Shown here: positions 5,001-39,184 of the stretch, piece by piece
How positions within the stretch are numbered: the first letter of the stretch is position 1
Layout: every line of letters begins with the position of its first letter
Source of the DNA: a virus
Virus record (IMG/VR): IMGVR_UViG_3300045391_003766
Span: 5,395 to 69,394 of that record
Length of the DNA: 64,000 nt
Direction: 5' to 3' (one strand)
Made by a program: the position numbers and the translations under genes
Notes under the pieces: model-generated
Seen by the model: only the letters and a program-made list of their open reading frames with translations
What the model was told of the DNA's origin: nothing
Database searches by the model: none

Positions 5001-6931
5001 CGGGCGGATACAAAGACCTCGCGATTGAGTCCTCCCGGCTGATCCATCTGGGCGACCGGGCCGGAGCCGCCGAAACAATTAACCGCTGCCTCGGCCTCGG
5101 CGTGAAGGGCGACTTTGACAGGCCCGACAAACACATGCCGGTGATCCAGACCTTCCTCCACTACATGCTTAATGAGAACGGCATGGAAGAAGCCGCCGCG
5201 ATGCTGTGGACGCCCACGCAATTTACCTCGGAGCCCCAATATACTAAAGACCTCTGGAAGCTGTTTGATGAGACCAACGCGGGGTTGATCATGGGTGCAG
5301 CATCGTGCTCGAAATCCTATGGCATCGGCGTCCGGCTGTTTCTCGAATGGATTCGCGATCCTGAATACACAACCATCAAGGTGATCGGCCCAAGTGAAGA
5401 GCATCTTGAGCAGAATTTATTTTCGCACTTGGTCAGTCTTCACAACAGCGCCACGCTCCCCATGCCCGGCGAAGTCGGAGAACTTTTCATCGGCCTCGAC
5501 CGGCGAGACATGGTGTCGTCTATCAAGGGTGTCATCATCCCCGTGGGGAAAGTCAAAAAGGCCGGACGGTTGCAGGGCGCGAAACGGAAGCCGCGCATCA
5601 AACCGCATCCGATCTTCGGCCCGCTCTCGCGCATGTTCGTGTTCATCGATGAAATTGAAAACGTGCCGGGCGGGCTATGGTCCGACATCGACAACGTGTT
5701 CTCGAACATTGGCGATGACGTTCACGGCCTAAAGATTTTCGGCGCATACAACCCCACCAACATGAGCGACGAAGTGGGCAAGCGCGCGGAGCCGCTTTTT
5801 GGTTGGGAAAACTTCGATCCCGACAAACACTTTCGATGGAAGTCGAAGCGTGGATGGGAAGTTCTCCGGCTCGACGGGGAGAAATCGGAAAACGTCGTTC
5901 AGGGTAAAGTTATATTTCCGGGATTGCAAACGCGCGCGGGCCTCGAACAGATTGCGCGCAACGCGGGCGGGAGAAACTCGCCGGGATATTTTTCGATGGG
6001 TCGCGGCGCGTATCCTCCGCAGGGCATCGAACTGACCGTCATTCCTCCGGCCATGTTCTACAAAATGCGCGGAGAGTTTATCTGGTATGAAGCGCCGCAG
6101 CCAACGTCCGGGTGCGACGTGGCGCTTGAAGGCGGAGACGCGGCCAGCTATTCGTTGGGCCGGTGTGGTTGGGCAACCGGAATGAAGCTGCCGCCGTCGA
6201 TTGATTTTCCGAATGGCCGGACGGTGATGTTCAAGTCCCCGAAGGGCCGCGTGGTGCCGCGCTGGGGCGTGCAGCTTGATCAACAATTTTCGTTGGAGAA
6301 GGGGGACACGCCTCACATGAAAAACGGTGTGCTTAATGTCACGAAGCGCGCCGGGGTGAAGCCGGAATATTTTGCAATCGACCGAACGGGCGTCGGCGCG
6401 GGTGTGGCGGATTTGATCAAGGACGAATGGTCTCGTGCGATCCACGACATTAACTATTCTCAAGCCCCAAGCACGGACAAAATAATGACCGAGGACTCCA
6501 TGACGTGCGATCAAGAGTATGATCGAATTTGCTCGGAATTGTGGTTTATGACACGCGCATATGCGGAGTTTGGCTATCTGCTCATCGCGCCATCGGTGGA
6601 CATCGCGGAGTTGTCGCAGCAGGTGACGCAGCGCCGATACCGGGCCGCAGGAAAAACGAAGAAGGTGGAAGCCAAGCGAGATTATATGTCGCGCGGTTAC
6701 AAATCACCGAATGAAGCAGATTCGCTCACGCTCATGATCTACGCGGCGCGCAAAGGCTCCGGCATCACTCCAAGTATGACGGGCGAGTCGGTGCGCGGGC
6801 CGGACAACGACGGCGGGCTCGACGATGATTGGTGGACTTCCCGGTATCCGGGCGGCGTCATCATCGATCCGACCAACCGGGCCGACGTTCTTGACGAGAG
6901 TGCCTCTGAGGATCACTTTTTATCGACATGA
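4994..6931 (+). CDS. terL: Terminase large subunit
   Basis: Divergent Walker A GAASCSKS, Walker B FVFIDEIE, and RNase H-like nuclease motifs GCDVALEGGD, FAIDRTGVG, SPNEADSL. Start placed at ATG 4994. Confidence 0.85.
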   Translation: MLTGGYKDLAIESSRLIHLGDRAGAAETINRCLGLGVKGDFDRPDKHMPVIQTFLHYMLNENGMEEAAAMLWTPTQFTSEPQYTKDLWKLFDETNAGLIMGAASCSKSYGIGVRLFLEWIRDPEYTTIKVIGPSEEHLEQNLFSHLVSLHNSATLPMPGEVGELFIGLDRRDMVSSIKGVIIPVGKVKKAGRLQGAKRKPRIKPHPIFGPLSRMFVFIDEIENVPGGLWSDIDNVFSNIGDDVHGLKIFGAYNPTNMSDEVGKRAEPLFGWENFDPDKHFRWKSKRGWEVLRLDGEKSENVVQGKVIFPGLQTRAGLEQIARNAGGRNSPGYFSMGRGAYPPQGIELTVIPPAMFYKMRGEFIWYEAPQPTSGCDVALEGGDAASYSLGRCGWATGMKLPPSIDFPNGRTVMFKSPKGRVVPRWGVQLDQQFSLEKGDTPHMKNGVLNVTKRAGVKPEYFAIDRTGVGAGVADLIKDEWSRAIHDINYSQAPSTDKIMTEDSMTCDQEYDRICSELWFMTRAYAEFGYLLIAPSVDIAELSQQVTQRRYRAAGKTKKVEAKRDYMSRGYKSPNEADSLTLMIYAARKGSGITPSMTGESVRGPDNDGGLDDDWWTSRYPGGVIIDPTNRADVLDESASEDHFLST

Positions 6932-27820: not shown

Positions 27821-28246
27821 ATGGTCAAAGAATTGAAATCTCACGAAGTCACAGAGCGAATTTCCCCGATTTTTGAGCACATTAGCCAAGAAGCGGGCGT
27901 TCCCTTTGCTTCGGCGCACTTTTTCCCTCACTGGCGGCGCATGATGGACATCGGCGTGGCCCGAATTTGGGAAAATGACGGCTGCGTGCTCGGCGCGATC
28001 TTTTCTCCCGATGTTTTCAATGGAAATTTGCGCGGGCTCGTCTATTTTTGGTTTGCCTTGCCGGAAGCACGCGGCACAGGTCGCCCTTCGGCGCTTTTGT
28101 CAGAGTTTGAAAAAGCCGCAGCGGCATGTGGGTGTCGAAACATCTCTATTTCCTCGCATGTCGCGGTGTCTCCCGAATACATGGAGAGAATGCTGGATCA
28201 AAAAGGTTATGAGGCATCCGAATTGGTTTTTTCTAAGTCGTTATGA
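27821..28246 (+). CDS. GNAT-family acetyltransferase
   Basis: WFALPEARGTGRPSALLSEFEKAA (acetyl-CoA motif A). A GNAT gene before ejection proteins is a common podovirus arrangement. Confidence 0.7.
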   Translation: MVKELKSHEVTERISPIFEHISQEAGVPFASAHFFPHWRRMMDIGVARIWENDGCVLGAIFSPDVFNGNLRGLVYFWFALPEARGTGRPSALLSEFEKAAAACGCRNISISSHVAVSPEYMERMLDQKGYEASELVFSKSL

Positions 28247-31650: not shown

Positions 31651-31660
31651 CACTGTTTAC
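31651..31660 (+). promoter_or_regulatory. Late motif CACTGTTTAC
   Basis: Exact copy, 6 nt before ATG 31667. Confidence 0.7.
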
Positions 31661-31666
31661 TAGCTT

Positions 31667-34600
31667 ATGCCGACTCCTGCCATTGGTGAAGAAGTTCAGT
31701 TGACGCCCGAACAGCAAGCGCAATACGAGCAACTTTCTGCGCCTACCTCTAATGAGGTTGATCCCATTCGGGATTTCAACTCCCAACAGCTTTCGGAGTT
31801 GGCCGTCAAAGACCCCAGCTTTAATCTCGTCGAAGCTTTTCGTCAGCACCCGGACAAATCACCAGAGGTTGTCCAGAAGGTCGCCGACGCGCACGACGCG
31901 ATCACGAAGCGCGGTTTTCAGTTGTCCGATTTGCCGAATCCCGTCAAGGCGGTCCCTCAAGCCGTTTATGAATTCGGCAAAGGCATTCTCAAGCAGGCAT
32001 GGAACTATGCCAATGCCGGTGCGGCAGCAATAGCAGGCGCAACGGTTGGGGGCGCTGCCGAAAACGAAATGATTCAAGAGGCCCAGCGGCGAGTTGGAGA
32101 AAACATCGCCGGGACTGAGCAGGCCGTCACAGGTTTGTCGAATCAAATTCAGGCCACAGGCCGCAAGGCCGCGAATCTCGTCACAGGCGGCGCGCAGACT
32201 CCCGAAGAGCGAGTAAAAAATTTGTGGGACGCGGTTGGTCGTGGAGAAGTGGCTGAAAATATTTCTAAGGGTCACGGCGCTTTCATGTCCGGCGTTGGCG
32301 GCAACGTGGTTCAAGAATTGGAACAAGCCGGTAAGCCGATTCGTCCTGAAGAAGTCAATACGCTCGCGCAAGGCGATCCTTTCACTTTTTGGTCGTTCGG
32401 AAAAGTCCTTGGCGGCGCAGGCAGGCTTGCTGGGAATATTCCGGGCGTGCAGGCCGCTACCAGCAAAGTTGGGGCCGCTTTGTCCACCGCAGCCGCTACC
32501 GGAGTTGGCAAAACAATTCAAGTTGCGGCCCCCGCAATCAAAGCGGGCGGCAAGACGGCGGAATTCCTCGGTGGAGGTATTAAAACCGTAGGCCCGCTAG
32601 TTCAGGGGCTGGAAGCACTCGCCACGGGAAATGTTTCACATGCCGCAGAAGGCGTAGGCAGCTATTACGGCGGTTCGGCGCTCCAGTGGATCGGCCAGCA
32701 GGCGGTAAAAAAAGCACAACCGATCAAACAATTTGGAAAACAAATTACGGGAGAAATCCCGCTCACGTCGCCATCTGCACAGGTCGTGAAAGATGTCGCG
32801 CAAGCCCTGCCCGGTGCTGCCGGAGAAGTTGCCAAAGGTGCCGCGTTAGACCTTGGTCTCGCTGCCGCCACTTCGGAATCGCCGGAGCAAACGCAGAACG
32901 CTCTCGGCCTTGGAACTGCTTTTGGTGCACTGTCCGGCGCGGGCCGCACTTTGGGTCACGTCGTCAGCGGCCAGATCATCGCGCCGCGCTCGTGGGGGAA
33001 TCCAACTCCCGTCGCTCCCTCTGGAAATTTTCCATCGCTCAATTCGGCGCACTCTCAAGCCTACGCTTCGGCTCCTGTCGGTGTGCAGACTCGCATTAAC
33101 GCGATTCGCCAATTCGCCAAAATGGCGGCTCCCGGCACGGACGTTTATTACGTGAACGACAAACCGGCGCTCTCGAAGGCTCTGGTCGATTCTGGTGTTG
33201 CCCCCGCGACGGCGGACCTGTGGTCAAAGCAGCTTGGTTTTTTCAGCACGGATTTGACTGGTAAAGACGGCCAGCAACATCCGGTCCTCGTCGTCACTGA
33301 TGCGGATGCCGCACCGCACGAATCTTTTCACGCTTTTCAAGACGTGCTCGGTGAAGAGGGCAACCGTGCCATTGATGAAATCGTCAAAAAGGACTATGGA
33401 GACCGCTGGGAGCAAGAAGGCCGTCGATACACGGAACGGGCCGCGCAACCCTCCGGCGTCGAAGTCGGACCTGACTGGCGATCCACGTTGCTCGATCTGA
33501 CCGGCTGGGGCCGCAGTGAGGCCATTGAAAAACTTACCTCGTCTCTCGAAAATCAACTCACTTCGGAGGGACAAGAACCGAACGCGGATTTTATTCGCCA
33601 GCGTGTCGATGGAGAGTGGAACAGACTGCGCGAGCAGGCGAAAGCCAACAACCCACAGGCCACTCCGGCAGAACTCGAATCGTCGATTTGGCGTGACGTG
33701 CTTTCGCCGGACGAAGCGAAAGATACCGCCGACCGATACATCGCGCGCGAACTCGCCGCTGAGAATTTTGATGCCATTTTCAAAGCACAGGGTCCGGGCC
33801 TCGTCGAAAACAAATCTTTGCCCGGCCAATTGGCGCGCGTGGTCGCAAAAGTGATGTCCGCATTGGGGAGCAATCCTCTGGCCGGACGACAAACGCAGAT
33901 CGGCAAAGTCGAACCTCGTTTTCAGACGACGGAGGCTGTGCGCAAGGCTGTGTTGGAGCAACAGCCCCCGGCTACTCCAAGTGCTGCTGCGACGCCGGAG
34001 AAACCGACTCCATCGACTCCTACTCCTTCTGCTCCTACTCCTGCCCCCGCGCCTTCTCCATCTCCCGAAGCGGAAAAAATCCGGGACTGGACGGCCAAGA
34101 ATCCGCCCACGGTGCCGGACAGATTGCGCGCCGCCGACACTATCGCTAATGCTATCGACAACGAGCAGACTGTCCAAGTGATCTATTGGGGTGCCAAGGG
34201 AGAACAGGGCGGCAGCATTGAGAGCGTTCGGCCAGAACGGCGCGCGGAAATCGAAGCCCAGCGCGAAGCGGGTAACGAAGACCGTCCTCTGGTTCAGAAA
34301 ACCTTTTTTCCAGAGCGCGTAGAGATGACAGGTAAAGGGCCGCAGATTGTTGGATGGTCTCCCGATAATTTTTACGCCAACGCCAATAAATTTGCGCAAT
34401 GGATTGATCAAGTCGGTGATGCGGCGCGTCAAAAGTTCGCGCTTTACAGAACCGACGGCAACGGAAATTTCACAGAGGACGGCTGGCGGTATCTACAGCA
34501 CGTCCTTAACGCTTTCATGCAGAACCAGCGCGCCGGTGCTACCGGGGCAGGCGAGCCGCTGATTGTCCCCAAGGAAACTCTGGCGAGAGGATTCACTCAG

Positions 34601-37600
34601 CCGAAAAAAGAAGGCACGGTCACACACATTGACCAAGGAGACGCGGACGTAATCAATTATCTTTTCCATGTTCAAATCCCGGAGAGCACTAGCCGGGTTG
34701 CACCGCTGCATATCGCCGGGCAAGAAATTTCTGAAGCCACGCAACCAAGCCGGTTACAAATCCCGGTTCGTCCTCGCGGCGAATACACGGAGGCGCAACT
34801 TTCAAAGGCCAACATCGCCGGGCCGCGCGGAGTCCGGGAAGTCAATCCGCTGCGAAACTGGATCGAGCAGGCCGCGAAATCCTCTGGTGTCGAAGCACCG
34901 TCGCTGATAGATGTTAGCCAACGTTTGAATTTGAGTCGCATTGCGGATGCGACGACGACACCCGAAGTCGCGCCAGTTCGCGGGAACACACTTACGCTCG
35001 CTGCTGGTTTCCAGCCGCCCAGTCTCTCGGACGAACCGGAAGCGATCAAGATTGCGGCGATCCGACTTCCGAACGGAAAAGTTTACGAGGCCGACAACTA
35101 TGGCTATCCCACTCACGGCGGCGCGCTGGCCAAGGCAAGACAGGCCGGAGAAGACATCCCGCAAATGATGCGGAGAAACGTTCCGGGGATCGTCGAAGGT
35201 TTCGTCACGAACAGCGGAGAATTCCTGAATCGCAAAGAGGCGTTTAAACGTGCTAAGGAATATGGCCAGATCACGGGCGAAGAGTTTTTCCCGCGTCCCG
35301 GTGAATTGGAATCGGTCAGTTTTGAACGCACCGCACATGGCCAATTTCAGCCCCCACAAATCGAAGAGATTGAGCGCATGTCGCCCGAAGAATTTACAAA
35401 ATGGGCGGAATCTTTGTCAGGAAATGGGGGATTCACCAGTGTCGCATACAAAGCAGGACTTCGGGCCTTCGAGGCGGGGCCAGAGGCAGTCGCTGGTTTA
35501 CTTGACGCCTACGACCGGGCGACAGCACAGGCTAAAGCGCTGTTCAAGACGGACATTCAGGCCGCAATGACTACCTCTTTCAAAGGCCAATATTTTCGCG
35601 AAGCGTGGGAAGCCGCAACGGGCCTCGGCTCTGGCGGCGAGATGCTCCGCAAACTTAAGGCTGGGCAGTTTCAACCGCAGGCCGCGCGCGAACTTACGCC
35701 GGAAGAAGAGCCTTCGCGCTCTGTCCCTTCATTTTCTACAGTTCGCCGACCTGAAGAGCAACCGGCGCAACCAGCCGGAGCCGCACGACCTTTTCTTCCG
35801 TCGAAGCAAGCCGAACCTGCGCCAAGCGCTGTCAAACTTCCGACCGCCGTTCCCGCTGCGCCCCAAGTGCAGACAGAAGAGGAAAAGAAACGCGCGCAGT
35901 TTCAGGGTCAAACCGATGTCCGAGACGTGGCCGAAAAATACGCCAAGTCTGCGGGCATTGAAGGTTACTCCGCCAATCGAAACTTTGAGCCTGTCCCCGA
36001 AGACTTGGCTCGCAAACTGGCGGACCATTACGAGAGCGCAAAGTCTGATCCCAAAAATGCTGACGTGCAAAAGTCCTACGCGGCACTCACGGACGAAACC
36101 GTTCGGCAGTTCCACGCGATTGAGAATGCGGGATACCAAATTGAACCTTTCACTGGCACCGGCGAGCCCTATAAGTCCAGCGCCGATATGGTCAAGGACG
36201 TGCGAGAGAACAAACATCTTTTCTATCTACCTACGAAAGAGGCGGGCGCGCTCGGAAAAGACAATCCGATGATGACTGACAGCGGCATCGAAATCAACGG
36301 CGAGCGTTTGCCGGTCAACGACGTATTCCGCGCCGTTCACGACTTTTTCGGTCACGCCAAGGAGGGTTTTCAATTTGGACCGCGCGGTGAATTCAACGCA
36401 TGGCGTGAGCACTCCGAAATGTATTCCCCGGATGCGCAAGGGGCGCTTGCGGCGGAGACTCTCGCGCAAAATTTCTGGGTCAACTACGGCAAGCACCTTC
36501 GCACCGGCCCGGAAGGTCGTATTCCGGCGAAAGGCGAAGAGGGGCATGTCGCTCCGCCGAACCGACCCTTCGCCGAACAGAAAAACGTCGTTATCCCGGA
36601 GAAATTTCTGGAGGAAGCTCGCAGTGCGTTTAAACAGCCTGAGCCCACTGCGCAACTTCAACCAAAATCTGAGGAAGACTTCAAAATGCCGAAAGGCACC
36701 GCAGGGGGATTCAAAAAAGCGTGGATCACTCCCGATGGCGCGCCGGTCCAACTGGGCGGACAGTGGCACTCCGATTGGTTGGATCAGAATCGGAACATGC
36801 TGGAACAAAAATATGGCATTACCGGCCTTCCGAAATTTGAGGGGACGGATACCGAAGTCGCGCGTGAAAAAGCTTTGGCTGCTGGATTCGCCCGGCTCAA
36901 CTACGCCATCAATAGCGGCAAGCTGACCGTTGAAGCCCGTGACGCCGATTGGAAAAACCTGAAAGAGCCGGTTCGGCATTTTGCGGAGGCAAATCTGGAC
37001 GATCTGGACAATATGTCAGTGCATCTGCTTGACAACAATTTGAAAGATGTCACGCGGAGCAAGAGCGCGCAGCTTTTCAAATATGGGTCCGACGCTGAGA
37101 AACTCGCCAATTTGCCGTTGCCTGATGTGGGGGAAGCGCCAAGCATGGAGGCCGCTTCAGAGCGTCTTTTCCAGAAGGCCGTCAAGGGCCAGCTTCAACC
37201 GAATGAAGAACAAACGACCTTGTTCGGAGAGAAAAATAAAGAGCCCCTTACCGGCGCGCAGGTCTCCGGTATGACGCGAGACGAATTGCTGAATCATTAC
37301 CCGGAGGCCATTGTTCCTCGAAAGCGCGATGATACCATTCCTTCGGAAATCACCAAGTCGCCGCTCTATAAACAGAGCCGGAATGAGCCGGAAGCGGTCA
37401 AGGCGTTCGGAGAAAAGCTTGCGGACTTCTACAACTCGGTTAAAGACAATCCCGCGACGCAGGCTGGTGCGAAATGGTATTCTGACTTCGTGCCGCGCCT
37501 GAAAAAAGAATTCGGCAAGAACGCTCCGCTCATGGCGGAATTACTCGCGGCCACAAGCCCCCGAACCAACGTTGAAACTAACTTTGGCTACGCCTACGAC

Positions 37601-38326
37601 GCCCTCAAAAGTTTTGAAGCTGGGCGCTTCGACAAGATCATCGCCAAATTCAATCAGGGAATGGACATGATCACTGACGACCGCTGGCTCTCGTGGTATA
37701 ACCGCGAGTTGAACGCTGGGAACATTCCCAATCCGCCGCAAGAACCGACGCCTGCGGCGTTTCTGGAACACTGGATTTTCACGCACAACCTGAAGCCCAC
37801 ACAGAGCAACGGAAAACTCTACGGGACTCACTCCATTCCCGTGCTGAAAGTTTTCGCGCGCCGATGGATGGATGAAAACACCGGCCCGAAGACTAGAACC
37901 TTTGTGTCGAACCTCACCGGCATGGGACACGAGGCGACAATTGATATGTGGGCCGACCGGACGATGCGCCGTCTCGGATATGAGGGCTACAAGGACCGTT
38001 GGAGGATTTTGCCTCAGAACTTGCACAGCGTAAGCGACGAGGATTTCTATTTTTCTCAAAAGGCTTTTCGTGACGCCGCCGAGCGCGTTGGAATTCAGCC
38101 GGACGCGATGCAAGGGGCTTTGTGGTTTGCCGAAAAGCAATTGTGGGCAGACAATGGCTGGGCCAAACTCGATCTAGGGGACTTCAGCAAGGAACTTGAA
38201 AAAGTTCCGATGCTCAAGAGAGCGTTTGAACAAAAACTTGCAAAAACCAAGGAACAGGGTAAAGTAAAGGCGGGGACTGAGGGCGAATTATTCGGCCCGT
38301 CAGTGACACCCCGACCAAAACTATGA
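31667..38326 (+). CDS. Giant polyvalent ejection protein with zincin-like metallopeptidase motif and several C-terminal domains
   Basis: 2219 aa. Gly/Ala-rich amphipathic N-terminal region, HESFH at aa 551-555, HDFFGH...GE from aa 1558, recurring Q[FL]QP linkers. Confidence 0.75.
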   Translation: MPTPAIGEEVQLTPEQQAQYEQLSAPTSNEVDPIRDFNSQQLSELAVKDPSFNLVEAFRQHPDKSPEVVQKVADAHDAITKRGFQLSDLPNPVKAVPQAVYEFGKGILKQAWNYANAGAAAIAGATVGGAAENEMIQEAQRRVGENIAGTEQAVTGLSNQIQATGRKAANLVTGGAQTPEERVKNLWDAVGRGEVAENISKGHGAFMSGVGGNVVQELEQAGKPIRPEEVNTLAQGDPFTFWSFGKVLGGAGRLAGNIPGVQAATSKVGAALSTAAATGVGKTIQVAAPAIKAGGKTAEFLGGGIKTVGPLVQGLEALATGNVSHAAEGVGSYYGGSALQWIGQQAVKKAQPIKQFGKQITGEIPLTSPSAQVVKDVAQALPGAAGEVAKGAALDLGLAAATSESPEQTQNALGLGTAFGALSGAGRTLGHVVSGQIIAPRSWGNPTPVAPSGNFPSLNSAHSQAYASAPVGVQTRINAIRQFAKMAAPGTDVYYVNDKPALSKALVDSGVAPATADLWSKQLGFFSTDLTGKDGQQHPVLVVTDADAAPHESFHAFQDVLGEEGNRAIDEIVKKDYGDRWEQEGRRYTERAAQPSGVEVGPDWRSTLLDLTGWGRSEAIEKLTSSLENQLTSEGQEPNADFIRQRVDGEWNRLREQAKANNPQATPAELESSIWRDVLSPDEAKDTADRYIARELAAENFDAIFKAQGPGLVENKSLPGQLARVVAKVMSALGSNPLAGRQTQIGKVEPRFQTTEAVRKAVLEQQPPATPSAAATPEKPTPSTPTPSAPTPAPAPSPSPEAEKIRDWTAKNPPTVPDRLRAADTIANAIDNEQTVQVIYWGAKGEQGGSIESVRPERRAEIEAQREAGNEDRPLVQKTFFPERVEMTGKGPQIVGWSPDNFYANANKFAQWIDQVGDAARQKFALYRTDGNGNFTEDGWRYLQHVLNAFMQNQRAGATGAGEPLIVPKETLARGFTQPKKEGTVTHIDQGDADVINYLFHVQIPESTSRVAPLHIAGQEISEATQPSRLQIPVRPRGEYTEAQLSKANIAGPRGVREVNPLRNWIEQAAKSSGVEAPSLIDVSQRLNLSRIADATTTPEVAPVRGNTLTLAAGFQPPSLSDEPEAIKIAAIRLPNGKVYEADNYGYPTHGGALAKARQAGEDIPQMMRRNVPGIVEGFVTNSGEFLNRKEAFKRAKEYGQITGEEFFPRPGELESVSFERTAHGQFQPPQIEEIERMSPEEFTKWAESLSGNGGFTSVAYKAGLRAFEAGPEAVAGLLDAYDRATAQAKALFKTDIQAAMTTSFKGQYFREAWEAATGLGSGGEMLRKLKAGQFQPQAARELTPEEEPSRSVPSFSTVRRPEEQPAQPAGAARPFLPSKQAEPAPSAVKLPTAVPAAPQVQTEEEKKRAQFQGQTDVRDVAEKYAKSAGIEGYSANRNFEPVPEDLARKLADHYESAKSDPKNADVQKSYAALTDETVRQFHAIENAGYQIEPFTGTGEPYKSSADMVKDVRENKHLFYLPTKEAGALGKDNPMMTDSGIEINGERLPVNDVFRAVHDFFGHAKEGFQFGPRGEFNAWREHSEMYSPDAQGALAAETLAQNFWVNYGKHLRTGPEGRIPAKGEEGHVAPPNRPFAEQKNVVIPEKFLEEARSAFKQPEPTAQLQPKSEEDFKMPKGTAGGFKKAWITPDGAPVQLGGQWHSDWLDQNRNMLEQKYGITGLPKFEGTDTEVAREKALAAGFARLNYAINSGKLTVEARDADWKNLKEPVRHFAEANLDDLDNMSVHLLDNNLKDVTRSKSAQLFKYGSDAEKLANLPLPDVGEAPSMEAASERLFQKAVKGQLQPNEEQTTLFGEKNKEPLTGAQVSGMTRDELLNHYPEAIVPRKRDDTIPSEITKSPLYKQSRNEPEAVKAFGEKLADFYNSVKDNPATQAGAKWYSDFVPRLKKEFGKNAPLMAELLAATSPRTNVETNFGYAYDALKSFEAGRFDKIIAKFNQGMDMITDDRWLSWYNRELNAGNIPNPPQEPTPAAFLEHWIFTHNLKPTQSNGKLYGTHSIPVLKVFARRWMDENTGPKTRTFVSNLTGMGHEATIDMWADRTMRRLGYEGYKDRWRILPQNLHSVSDEDFYFSQKAFRDAAERVGIQPDAMQGALWFAEKQLWADNGWAKLDLGDFSKELEKVPMLKRAFEQKLAKTKEQGKVKAGTEGELFGPSVTPRPKL

Positions 38327-38517
38327 AAATTGTTGCATCTATCGCACACATTAAGAGTCTCCCGGAGACGGAGAAACAGGAAATGCTCGCCAGCGCCCGC
38401 ATCGCGGACTATAGGCCGGGCGAACAAGAATTTTGGGCTGAAGTTGAGGCCCGGATGAAGGTCCGGGAAAATCAAACCGCCGACCGGGTTGTGCCTCGCC
38501 CCGGCAAGAAGCACTAA
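38323..38517 (+). CDS. Hypothetical protein
   Basis: 64-aa ORF overlapping the giant gene's stop. Confidence 0.45.
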   Translation: MKIVASIAHIKSLPETEKQEMLASARIADYRPGEQEFWAEVEARMKVRENQTADRVVPRPGKKH

Positions 38518-38524
38518 TTACCGT

Positions 38525-39184
38525 ATGGCTGACCAACCCGTAATTGAACCTTCGGCACCCGCTGGAAGTCCACCCCAAGAAATCGATCCTAACGCTTCTC
38601 CGGCTCCTGCCGCGCCCGCCGCACCAGCAAAAGGCGGACTGCCTAACGAACTGCTCCAAATCCCCGCCCTTCAGGCAGTGTTTGCCGGTGCTCCCGCCGC
38701 CGTCTCCGCGCCCATCAAGGAATTCGCCAATCGCCCAGAGGCCAAGCTGATCATCGACAACAAGGATTTGCTTGCTAAAGCAGGTATGGGCCTCTATAGA
38801 AGCATTTCCGGCGATCTGGGGGTCATATTCAACGCTCTGAGGCTTCACCCGGAGGCTCTGGTGGCCGCAGACAAGGCCGGGCAGCTTGCGAAGGTGGCAC
38901 CCCCTTTTGACGCTGTGAACGCAGCAATCGCCCAATCCGGCGCAAATCACCCCGCTCTACATGTCCAGTCCGTCCCGCAAGGACCACCCGCGCCGCCGAT
39001 GCCGACACCGCCCCAGAACGCGGCCATGCCCACGCCCGGCCCGGCACCGTCCCAAAGTCCTGCCAGTGTGCAAAACAAGGTCTCTACCGCTCGTGTGGGG
39101 GCTTTGACGCAGGACAGCCCAACAAGTGGGCCAGCGCCGGGCAGGGGAAGGCTTCTCAATTCGATCTTAAAACCCGTCGTATAG
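38525..39184 (+). CDS. Pro/Ala-rich late protein
   Basis: Start at ATG 38525, preceded by CACTAATTAC (8/10 match to the late motif). Last + strand gene. Confidence 0.55.
   Translation: MADQPVIEPSAPAGSPPQEIDPNASPAPAAPAAPAKGGLPNELLQIPALQAVFAGAPAAVSAPIKEFANRPEAKLIIDNKDLLAKAGMGLYRSISGDLGVIFNALRLHPEALVAADKAGQLAKVAPPFDAVNAAIAQSGANHPALHVQSVPQGPPAPPMPTPPQNAAMPTPGPAPSQSPASVQNKVSTARVGALTQDSPTSGPAPGRGRLLNSILKPVV

Follow-up and report, generated by a model that had tools for sequence, protein, structure and literature searches.

The virus genome held in IMG/VR as record IMGVR_UViG_3300045391_003766 encodes a giant protein whose modules are joined by linkers that carry a short linear motif. We analyzed a 64,000-nucleotide stretch of this record (positions 5,395 to 69,394; hereafter, the window), in which an open reading frame (ORF) on the plus strand (31667–38326) is open throughout and specifies a polyvalent-type protein of 2219 amino acids (aa), here designated P0001. 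The motif, Q-[F/L/A]-x-P, lies at module junctions in or against disordered linkers; cassettes are exchanged between homologues at the motif; its third residue varies in concert within a protein; and the constant N-terminal half of the family contains a conserved metal-site signature, HExxH. We lean towards the view that the motif is cleaved by a phage-encoded reader, most simply the giant protein's own HExxH domain. Cutting at the motif, the enzyme responsible and the time of the cut, as well as packaging and ejection of the protein, are inferred.

A linear motif at the borders of exchangeable modules

An earlier note on this DNA, written from the letters alone, had listed six related motifs, an HESFH sequence and a downstream Glu in the translation. 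A motif search recovered all of them at the positions given there, with six pattern matches compared to 0.0585 expected from 20,000 shuffles of the protein (Poisson tail ~5 × 10−11). The distances from motif to motif, and from the last motif to the C-terminus, are 111, 108, 77, 252, 179, and 379 aa.

31667..38326, plus strand: giant ORF P0001, 2219 aa, polyvalent type
35006..35017, plus strand: motif 1, GFQP, aa 1114–1117, at the junction of the constant part and the cargo
35339..35353, plus strand: motif 2, GQFQP, aa 1225–1229, in the low-confidence segment aa 1220–1228
35663..35677, plus strand: motif 3, GQFQP, aa 1333–1337, at the edge of a disordered segment
35678..35893, plus strand: disordered Pro/Ala/Glu-rich spacer, aa 1338–1409, pLDDT (predicted local distance difference test) ~30
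35894..35908, plus strand: motif 4, AQFQG, aa 1410–1414, a Pro-to-Gly variant that is QAQP in homologues
36650..36664, plus strand: motif 5, AQLQP, aa 1662–1666, in the low-confidence segment aa 1656–1668
37187..37201, plus strand: motif 6, GQLQP, aa 1841–1845, in the low-confidence segment aa 1825–1857

Because the six-motif pattern was defined after the fact, the C-terminal halves of homologues served as an independent test. A search of 5.8 billion proteins returned at least 338 giant homologues, none from a cultured source, and the best 120 of these 338, all metagenomic, are mostly 1900–3400 aa long; the first ~1100 residues are common to the homologues, whereas the C-terminal halves differ. 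QFQP occurs 157 times in the C-terminal halves of the 120 proteins against 0.87 expected, and it is the only highly enriched 4-mer there that lacks conserved flanks. The broader pattern Q[FLAMIV]QP occurs 284 times in the same halves compared to 6.3 in shuffles (maximum 14), with no excess in the N-terminal halves (11 versus 9.3). Ten co-linear homologues of 40–50% identity keep Q-[F/L/A]-Q-P at the same junctions, the other linker residues being free to change. Among the real genes of the 72.9-kb genome the motif is confined to the giant protein; the one further match is in a minus-strand ORF (38351–38950) that overlaps a conserved plus-strand gene and is spurious.

The codons of the six copies vary synonymously (CAA/CAG, TTT/TTC/CTT, CCG/CCC/CCA), which indicates that the motif is conserved at the protein level, and on this ground a DNA-level repeat or recombination site was rejected. 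We also rejected a transglutaminase QxP site, an idea that came from a literature match: the spacing is wrong for it, and an enzyme of that kind is absent.

An AlphaFold2 model of the cargo region (aa 1100–2219; 24-sequence alignment, mean pLDDT 78) contains five well-folded modules. Segments with pLDDT below 50 are found at the module boundaries (aa 1100–1119, 1220–1228, 1338–1414, 1656–1668, and 1825–1857) and, as a sixth, in a short C-terminal tail (aa 2200–2209). Every one of the five boundary segments holds or abuts a motif: five of the six motifs are inside such a segment and motif 3 directly abuts one. The 77-aa stretch from motif 3 to motif 4 is a disordered spacer that is absent from the co-linear homologues. 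The suggestion in the earlier note that the motifs separate domains is thus borne out by the model, which places them in or directly against disordered linkers between the folded modules. Foldseek searches with the 1120-residue cargo model gave weak rows only.

35018..35338, plus strand: module M1, aa 1118–1224, alpha/beta, segment family 1 (~100 aa), weak match to phrog_839
35354..35662, plus strand: module M2, aa 1230–1332, helical, segment family 4
35909..36649, plus strand: module M3, aa 1415–1661, T4_Y16D / phrog_3170 type, with an HDFFGH motif
36665..37186, plus strand: module M4, aa 1667–1840, alpha/beta, segment family 2
37202..38326, plus strand: module M5, aa 1846–2219, helical, contains DUF7178, segment family 0

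The ends of BLAST local alignments (high-scoring segment pairs, HSPs) on P0001 pile up at aa 1101–1140, 1221–1260, 1321–1360, 1381–1420, 1641–1680, and 1801–1860, and these six peaks coincide with the six motif positions. When all protein pairs are taken together, internal HSP ends fall within 10 aa of a motif in 30% of cases, compared to 5.8% for random positions. Cutting the homologues at the motif yielded 552 segments, which were clustered into families of nearly constant length, the medians of the five commonest being ~101, 127, 167, 241, and 372 aa. Between homologues these motif-bounded families are permuted, duplicated or inserted: their order is 1-4-3-2-0 in P0001, 4-3-2-1-0 in P0004, 4-1-3-2-0 in P0012, 4-2-3-5-0 in P0044, and 4-10-u-5-12-1-2-0 in P0054, and P0082 has three copies of family 1. 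The earlier note had imagined a modular cassette scaffold and had proposed a search among homologues for swapping at the motif; both the alignment ends and the segment families place the exchange exactly there, and homologues carry the motif at their module junctions.

Representative segments are complete domains, including GNAT (families 7 and 16), radical SAM (family 10), DUF3293/S-adenosylmethionine (SAM)-lyase-like (families 17 and 20), and DUF7178 (family 0). The C-terminal halves of the homologues variously hold GNAT, radical SAM, DUF3293, His-phosphatase, ART-PolyVal, T4_Y16D, and DUF7178 domains, with the DUF7178 module almost always last. Two cassettes (P0117:2207–2356 and P0079:2568–2984) match DUF3293, and one of them also matches the S-adenosylmethionine lyase family below the cut-off; judged by such resemblances, the DUF3293/SAM-lyase-like cassettes hint at anti-restriction cargo. 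Altogether, cutting at the motif gives more than 130 segment clusters, ~40 of them recurrent and most without a Pfam match, for which anti-defence or host-takeover functions are probable. Three relatives without the last module showed no natural split of the gene at the motif; in relatives with shorter giant proteins this module is simply missing and the next gene encodes a conserved, unrelated protein of ~230 aa.

Module M3 also occurs elsewhere, in unrelated proteins of cyanophages, a Rhodococcus phage, and cluster-C mycobacteriophages. It is present in 213 phage records under annotations as varied as lysin, RelA/SpoT, structural protein, and large polyvalent protein, and the matches begin at aa 1412–1422, just past motif 4. 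Module M5 has a weak fold likeness to helix-hairpin-helix 8-oxoguanine DNA glycosylases (3knt and 3n0u; template modelling (TM) score ~0.5 by target, Foldseek probability 0.66–0.8, E ~0.8–1).

The general form of the motif is Q-F-x-P, in which x is uniform within a protein and differs between lineages. When x is Q at the first junction, it is Q at 134 of 193 other junctions; when the first is not Q, only 2 of 52 others are. P0029 has GFEP and three copies of QFEP (EEEE), P0044, P0074, and P0070 have only L, P0067 reads RRKSKKK, and P0031, P0040, and P0041 read AAAS. Further representatives have five copies of QFKP (P0155), three of QFEP (P0193) or QFLP (P0200, P0201, P0210, and P0215), and a third residue that is uniform but not Q characterises no fewer than five or six separate lineages. 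The flanks of the motif copies within one protein are unrelated, so this concerted variation does not stem from linker duplication. It points instead to a common reader that co-evolves with its sites, as at the protease sites of viral polyproteins.

The constant N-terminal half and its HExxH domain

The constant half consists of four regions.

31667..32953, plus strand: conserved Gly/Ala-rich N-terminal region, aa 1–429, without a classical transmembrane helix; VQLTPE at aa 10–15
32954..33976, plus strand: zincin-like HExxH domain, aa 430–770, with invariant residues in a 60-sequence alignment
33977..34081, plus strand: Pro/Ala/Ser/Thr-rich spacer, aa 771–805, without the motif
34082..35002, plus strand: most conserved domain of the family, aa 806–1112, ending RGNTLTL.AG just before motif 1

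The HESFH sequence lies at aa 551–555 and ARELAAE, which contains E695 and E699, starts at aa 693. The 60-sequence alignment has invariant columns at H551, E552, H555, E695, A698, and G734 and nearly invariant ones at Y691 and E699. Throughout the constant half H551 and H555 are the sole near-invariant histidines, and there is no near-invariant Ser or Cys. The model of the domain is confident (pLDDT 95.4, predicted TM score 0.90): two strands (96–102 and 108–114, in model numbering) precede a long helix (117–147) that begins with HExxH, and E695, Y691, and E699 are all on a later helix (252–279). The candidate third ligand, E695, is ~140 residues downstream of HExxH, with a helical insert of ~120 residues in between.

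In an exhaustive structural comparison, the best whole-domain matches were the Certhrax N-domain, the catalytic domain of anthrax lethal factor, PPEP-2, and PPEP-3 (Z 5.8–6.7, 150–163 aligned residues); the N-domains of lethal factor and edema factor were matched as well. The whole set spans Z 5.1–6.7 over 150–173 residues, with all but the edema factor N-domain at 5.7 or above, values that the tool rates as uncertain. Weak Foldseek rows included peptidase M48 (E 0.02) and viral models of polyvalent proteins (E ~0.03), those from BFVD being LPD38 or ART-PolyVal proteins. A shape search of the ESM Atlas gave TM scores by query of at most 0.37, among them clusters carrying M78 and DUF2927. The zincin motif pointed out in the earlier note thus belongs to a well-folded and conserved domain whose order of strands and helices fits a zincin and whose weak best matches are zincins; the domain is not a member of the MPTase-PolyVal family of polyvalent proteins.

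A profile of the HExxH domain found 200 cluster representatives among 1.84 billion, at the same approximate position in giant proteins; the exceptions are short partial entries. A profile search of PDB sequences with the domain gave no match, and Pfam scans, run on the full-length protein and on 60 HExxH domains, detected no LPD family. Judged by these profile searches, the domain appears to be a separate family confined to these giant phage proteins. H-[E/D]-x-x-H is present in all but a few of the ~200 representatives, and E-x-x-A-E-N almost throughout. A divergent subclade reads HDxxH in place of HExxH, and in several further proteins an extra residue gives HExxxH; P0166, P0171, P0192, P0194, P0196, P0198, P0203, P0205, P0209, P0210, P0214, and P0215 make up the set with either form.

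The domain at aa 806–1112 contains many near-invariant Arg, Pro, and Asn residues, and it had no relative in Pfam, among PDB sequences or in a feature search of the Atlas. As an alternative protease this domain (taken as aa 806–1118) was rejected, because it has no near-invariant His, Ser or Cys. Near the N-terminus, VQLTPE (31694–31711) resembles Q-L-x-P and is conserved in many homologues. It is duplicated in P0128, P0151, P0159, and P0169 and does not vary with the third residue of the junction motif from lineage to lineage. Either a signal of its own or a site of N-terminal processing is conceivable.

What may read the motif

The giant protein has two parts. The 1113 constant N-terminal residues, comprising the Gly/Ala-rich region, the zincin-like HExxH domain, and the conserved 300-aa domain, are followed by a variable string of independently folding cargo modules, each junction being a short disordered linker with Q-[F/L/A]-x-P. 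We propose that the motif acts as the recognition site of a factor that co-evolves with it, most likely an endopeptidase, for which the simplest candidate is the protein's own HExxH domain. The chain would stay whole while it is handled and would afterwards be divided into its modules, in the manner of a viral polyprotein or a MARTX toxin. The HExxH domain bears the only conserved catalytic-type signature of the constant half. Zincins usually prefer a hydrophobic residue just after the cut, and the hydrophobic second residue of the motif (F, L, A or M) fits this preference, which we take as a lead only.

Several results weigh against this reading. The HExxH domain model bears only a weak likeness to zincins (its Z of ~6 falls short of the caution level set by the tool), and E695 is unusually far from HExxH for a Glu ligand. 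In Foldseek searches of the PDB, AFDB clusters, and BFVD no E value was below 0.01, the lowest values starting at 0.015; no peptidase family was found when 60 HExxH domains and the full-length protein were scanned with Pfam; and neither MPTase-PolyVal (PF18818) nor ATLF (PF07737, peptidase family M34) matched anywhere in the genome at E up to 1. Some proteins of the HDxxH subclade still have QFLP or QFAP motifs, which is hard to square with an absolute requirement for the catalytic Glu. Some homologue junctions lack the motif (e.g., AAAP and QFAG), indicating that not every junction needs it. When specificity determinants were sought in the HExxH domain, no residue was found to track the motif type clearly. 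Residue 558 (33338–33340; HExxHxx-Q) is the only one that changes, to Asp or Glu, in several lineages of non-Q type: Lys or Arg occupies x in 28% of motifs in proteins with Asp at residue 558, compared to 8% with Glu and 3% with Gln, and Asp or Glu occupies this position in six of the seven proteins with at least two Lys/Arg-type motifs (P0101, P0106, P0155, P0159, P0135, and P0149). The pattern may reflect charge complementarity between reader and site, but the link is weak, with P0067 as an exception, few lineages, and confounding by phylogeny. A predicted complex of the HExxH domain with the linker peptide aa 1318–1352 scored 0.01 and counts neither way.

The same motif might serve as a docking or handling signal that is never cut, the linkers binding a phage partner such as the inner surface of the capsid, the portal, the scaffold, or a packaging or ejection chaperone, so that the long chain is organised in the head or fed through the tail and the modules act while tethered. 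Any co-evolving binding partner would account as well as a protease for the concerted variation and for the aromatic residue exposed in each linker, the HDxxH subclade retains the motif, and N4 virion RNA polymerase is packaged unprocessed (PMC5512222). However, a binding signal would have no need to occupy every junction or to delimit exchangeable cassettes with such precision, neither the constant half nor its long Pro-rich spacer contains the motif, and the only conserved catalytic-type signature of that half is a peptidase-like metal site. We judge uncut docking unlikely, though worth keeping in view. A protease or chaperone of the host could also read or cut the motif, the HExxH domain having another role, for example as an effector or in penetrating the cell wall or envelope, and lineage differences would then reflect hosts. 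Host switching would likewise produce lineage-specific, internally uniform variants, the failure of any HExxH-domain residue to track the motif type clearly is in line with this, and an envelope-degrading role has been proposed for the metallopeptidase of the giant ejection protein of phi24B (bioRxiv 10.64898/2026.04.10.717836). We nevertheless consider a host reader improbable: close relatives differ (on the tree, P0029 with EEEE neighbours P0012 and P0085, which are Q/S types), which would require frequent changes of host factor, and a literature search found no known bacterial protease specificity of the motif's form.

Finally, the motif may be a passive signature that is inherited with the cassettes and has no biochemical reader, like a recombination scar or demarcation motif. 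It does mark the exact borders of exchangeable cassettes, and VENN and DPxGL motifs similarly precede variable toxin domains. Yet four residues are kept across proteins of 30–45% identity while neighbouring linker residues are free, the codons vary synonymously, 12 nucleotides are too short for homologous exchange, and only a common reader can explain why the third residue changes in concert at every junction of a protein; we give this explanation very little credence. Cleavage by a phage-encoded reader can also be stated in a fuller form. Q-[F/L/A]-x-P may be the self-cleavage code of a previously unrecognised metallopeptidase family confined to these proteins, the protease and its sites co-evolving within a single chain, such that a 240-kDa chain would be threaded into the host and release a customisable set of 3 to 12 anti-host enzymes, with the motif as the standard border for cassette exchange. 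We put this version forward tentatively, as a possibility worth stating rather than one that we expect to be right in full.

Autoprocessing of polyvalent proteins was proposed in 2017, and no processing sites are defined in the literature that we found. Hundreds of natural proteins in this family have an explicit candidate site at nearly all of their module borders, and the natural motif variants (Q, L, E, K, and A types), together with a single candidate catalytic centre, make the hypothesis directly testable. The motif also provides a simple rule for dividing giant ORFs into domains. If the fuller version holds, the family would be a plug-and-play platform for effector delivery with a readable, predictable processing map, and its pairs of protease and site, once confirmed, could be useful as orthogonal processing tools.

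Genomic setting and comparison with known systems

The source record is a 72,895-bp virus genome with direct terminal repeats. The giant gene is the last of the structural strand, which encodes the terminase, portal, capsid, fibres, and several further virion-block proteins, and on its 3' side is a convergent replication block (exonuclease, a sigma-like protein, and a family A DNA polymerase); the order of genes around it is conserved in relatives. A 10-mer lies just upstream of the gene.

31651..31660, plus strand: 10-mer CACTGTTTAC, 7 nt 5' of the start codon of the giant gene

Seven copies of this 10-mer are present in the window, where 0.2 would be expected, and further late or structural gene blocks likewise have it at their head. 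Because of its position in the structural block and the shared 10-mer, the giant gene is likely to be expressed late and its product to be virion-associated. The protein is probably virion-borne, in an uncultured lineage of ~70-kb phages with direct terminal repeats. The earlier note's label "injected" rests on gene position and the late 10-mer, and it is from gene order that packaging and ejection are deduced. A megablast search of the giant gene against 50,697 phage records gave no match, a scan of IMG/VR with back-translated peptides confirmed no relative, and tblastn of the whole protein against the same 50,697 records matched module M3 (aa 1418–1700) only, the constant half being found in no cultured phage.

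Directly 3' of the giant gene is a conserved Pro/Ala-rich protein of 231 aa (38489–39184, plus strand), which is 55% identical to a 233-aa gene product at the same place in the relative L002. Within the structural block, a free-standing ORF of 141 aa (27821–28246, plus strand) has a counterpart at the same position in L002 with weak GNAT matches, and GNAT is among the cassettes of the giant protein's homologues.

Polyvalent proteins of phages and plasmids are relatives in kind. Iyer, Burroughs, Anand, de Souza, and Aravind (2017; PMC5512222) proposed that zincin-like domains release the other domains by autoproteolysis, and the giant protein resembles their examples as a giant multidomain phage protein, encoded among what are probably late or virion genes, that unites a zincin-like HExxH domain with unrelated enzymatic domains. 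It likewise combines several unrelated domains in one polypeptide, with five folded modules that include DUF7178 and the T4_Y16D type. Unlike in those examples, neither the MPTase-PolyVal nor any LPD family was detected in it, and its HExxH domain is a separate family. A recurrent inter-module motif is not mentioned in PMC5512222 or in the literature found with "QFQP". Nor does such a series of motifs occur in a cyanophage large polyvalent protein that also contains module M3.

Among podovirus ejection proteins, phi24B gp47 (2811 aa) is a large polyvalent protein with a metallopeptidase domain that is found in virions and has been proposed to be ejected (bioRxiv 10.64898/2026.04.10.717836). 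Like it and N4 virion RNA polymerase, the giant protein is very large and encoded at the end of the structural genes, although it has no sequence relation to either. To our knowledge, no junction motif has been reported for these two proteins. Head proteases such as T4 gp21, which cuts at L/I-x-E, and phiKZ gp175, which cuts at S/A/G-x-E, process internal proteins, and their motif is also found in capsid, scaffold, and portal proteins. The likeness is in the short consensus motif, which in T4 and phiKZ directs the cutting of head-borne, host-entering proteins; in the present genome the motif is confined to one protein, and S78, the sole head-protease family searched for, had no match. M34 zincins (lethal factor, PPEP-2, and PPEP-3) share with the model of the HExxH domain a helix-borne HExxH that follows a sheet and provide its best whole-domain structural matches, and PPEPs cut proline-containing linker motifs. 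The domain differs from them in leaving Pfam ATLF unmatched, in Z scores of the uncertain range, and in the ~120-residue helical insert before the Glu helix.

Viral polyproteins are cut by a virus-encoded protease, for example 3C in picornaviruses and NIa in potyviruses. As in those, a short motif is found at each domain junction, uniform within a genome and divergent between lineages. The differences are that the giant protein belongs to a DNA phage, that the candidate enzyme is metallopeptidase-like and not chymotrypsin-like, that accessory cargo takes the place of replication proteins, and that its cleavage is deduced. In MARTX toxins a cysteine protease domain, activated by a eukaryotic cofactor, carries out autoprocessing within linkers and releases effector cassettes that are shuffled between strains. 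The giant protein similarly joins a constant, putative delivery part to a variable array of candidate effector cassettes in one chain, but MARTX toxins are secreted bacterial toxins with another class of protease and another site, whereas this is a phage protein. By analogy, then, the giant protein appears to be of the polyvalent type in its working and, in its logic, closest to viral polyproteins and MARTX toxins.

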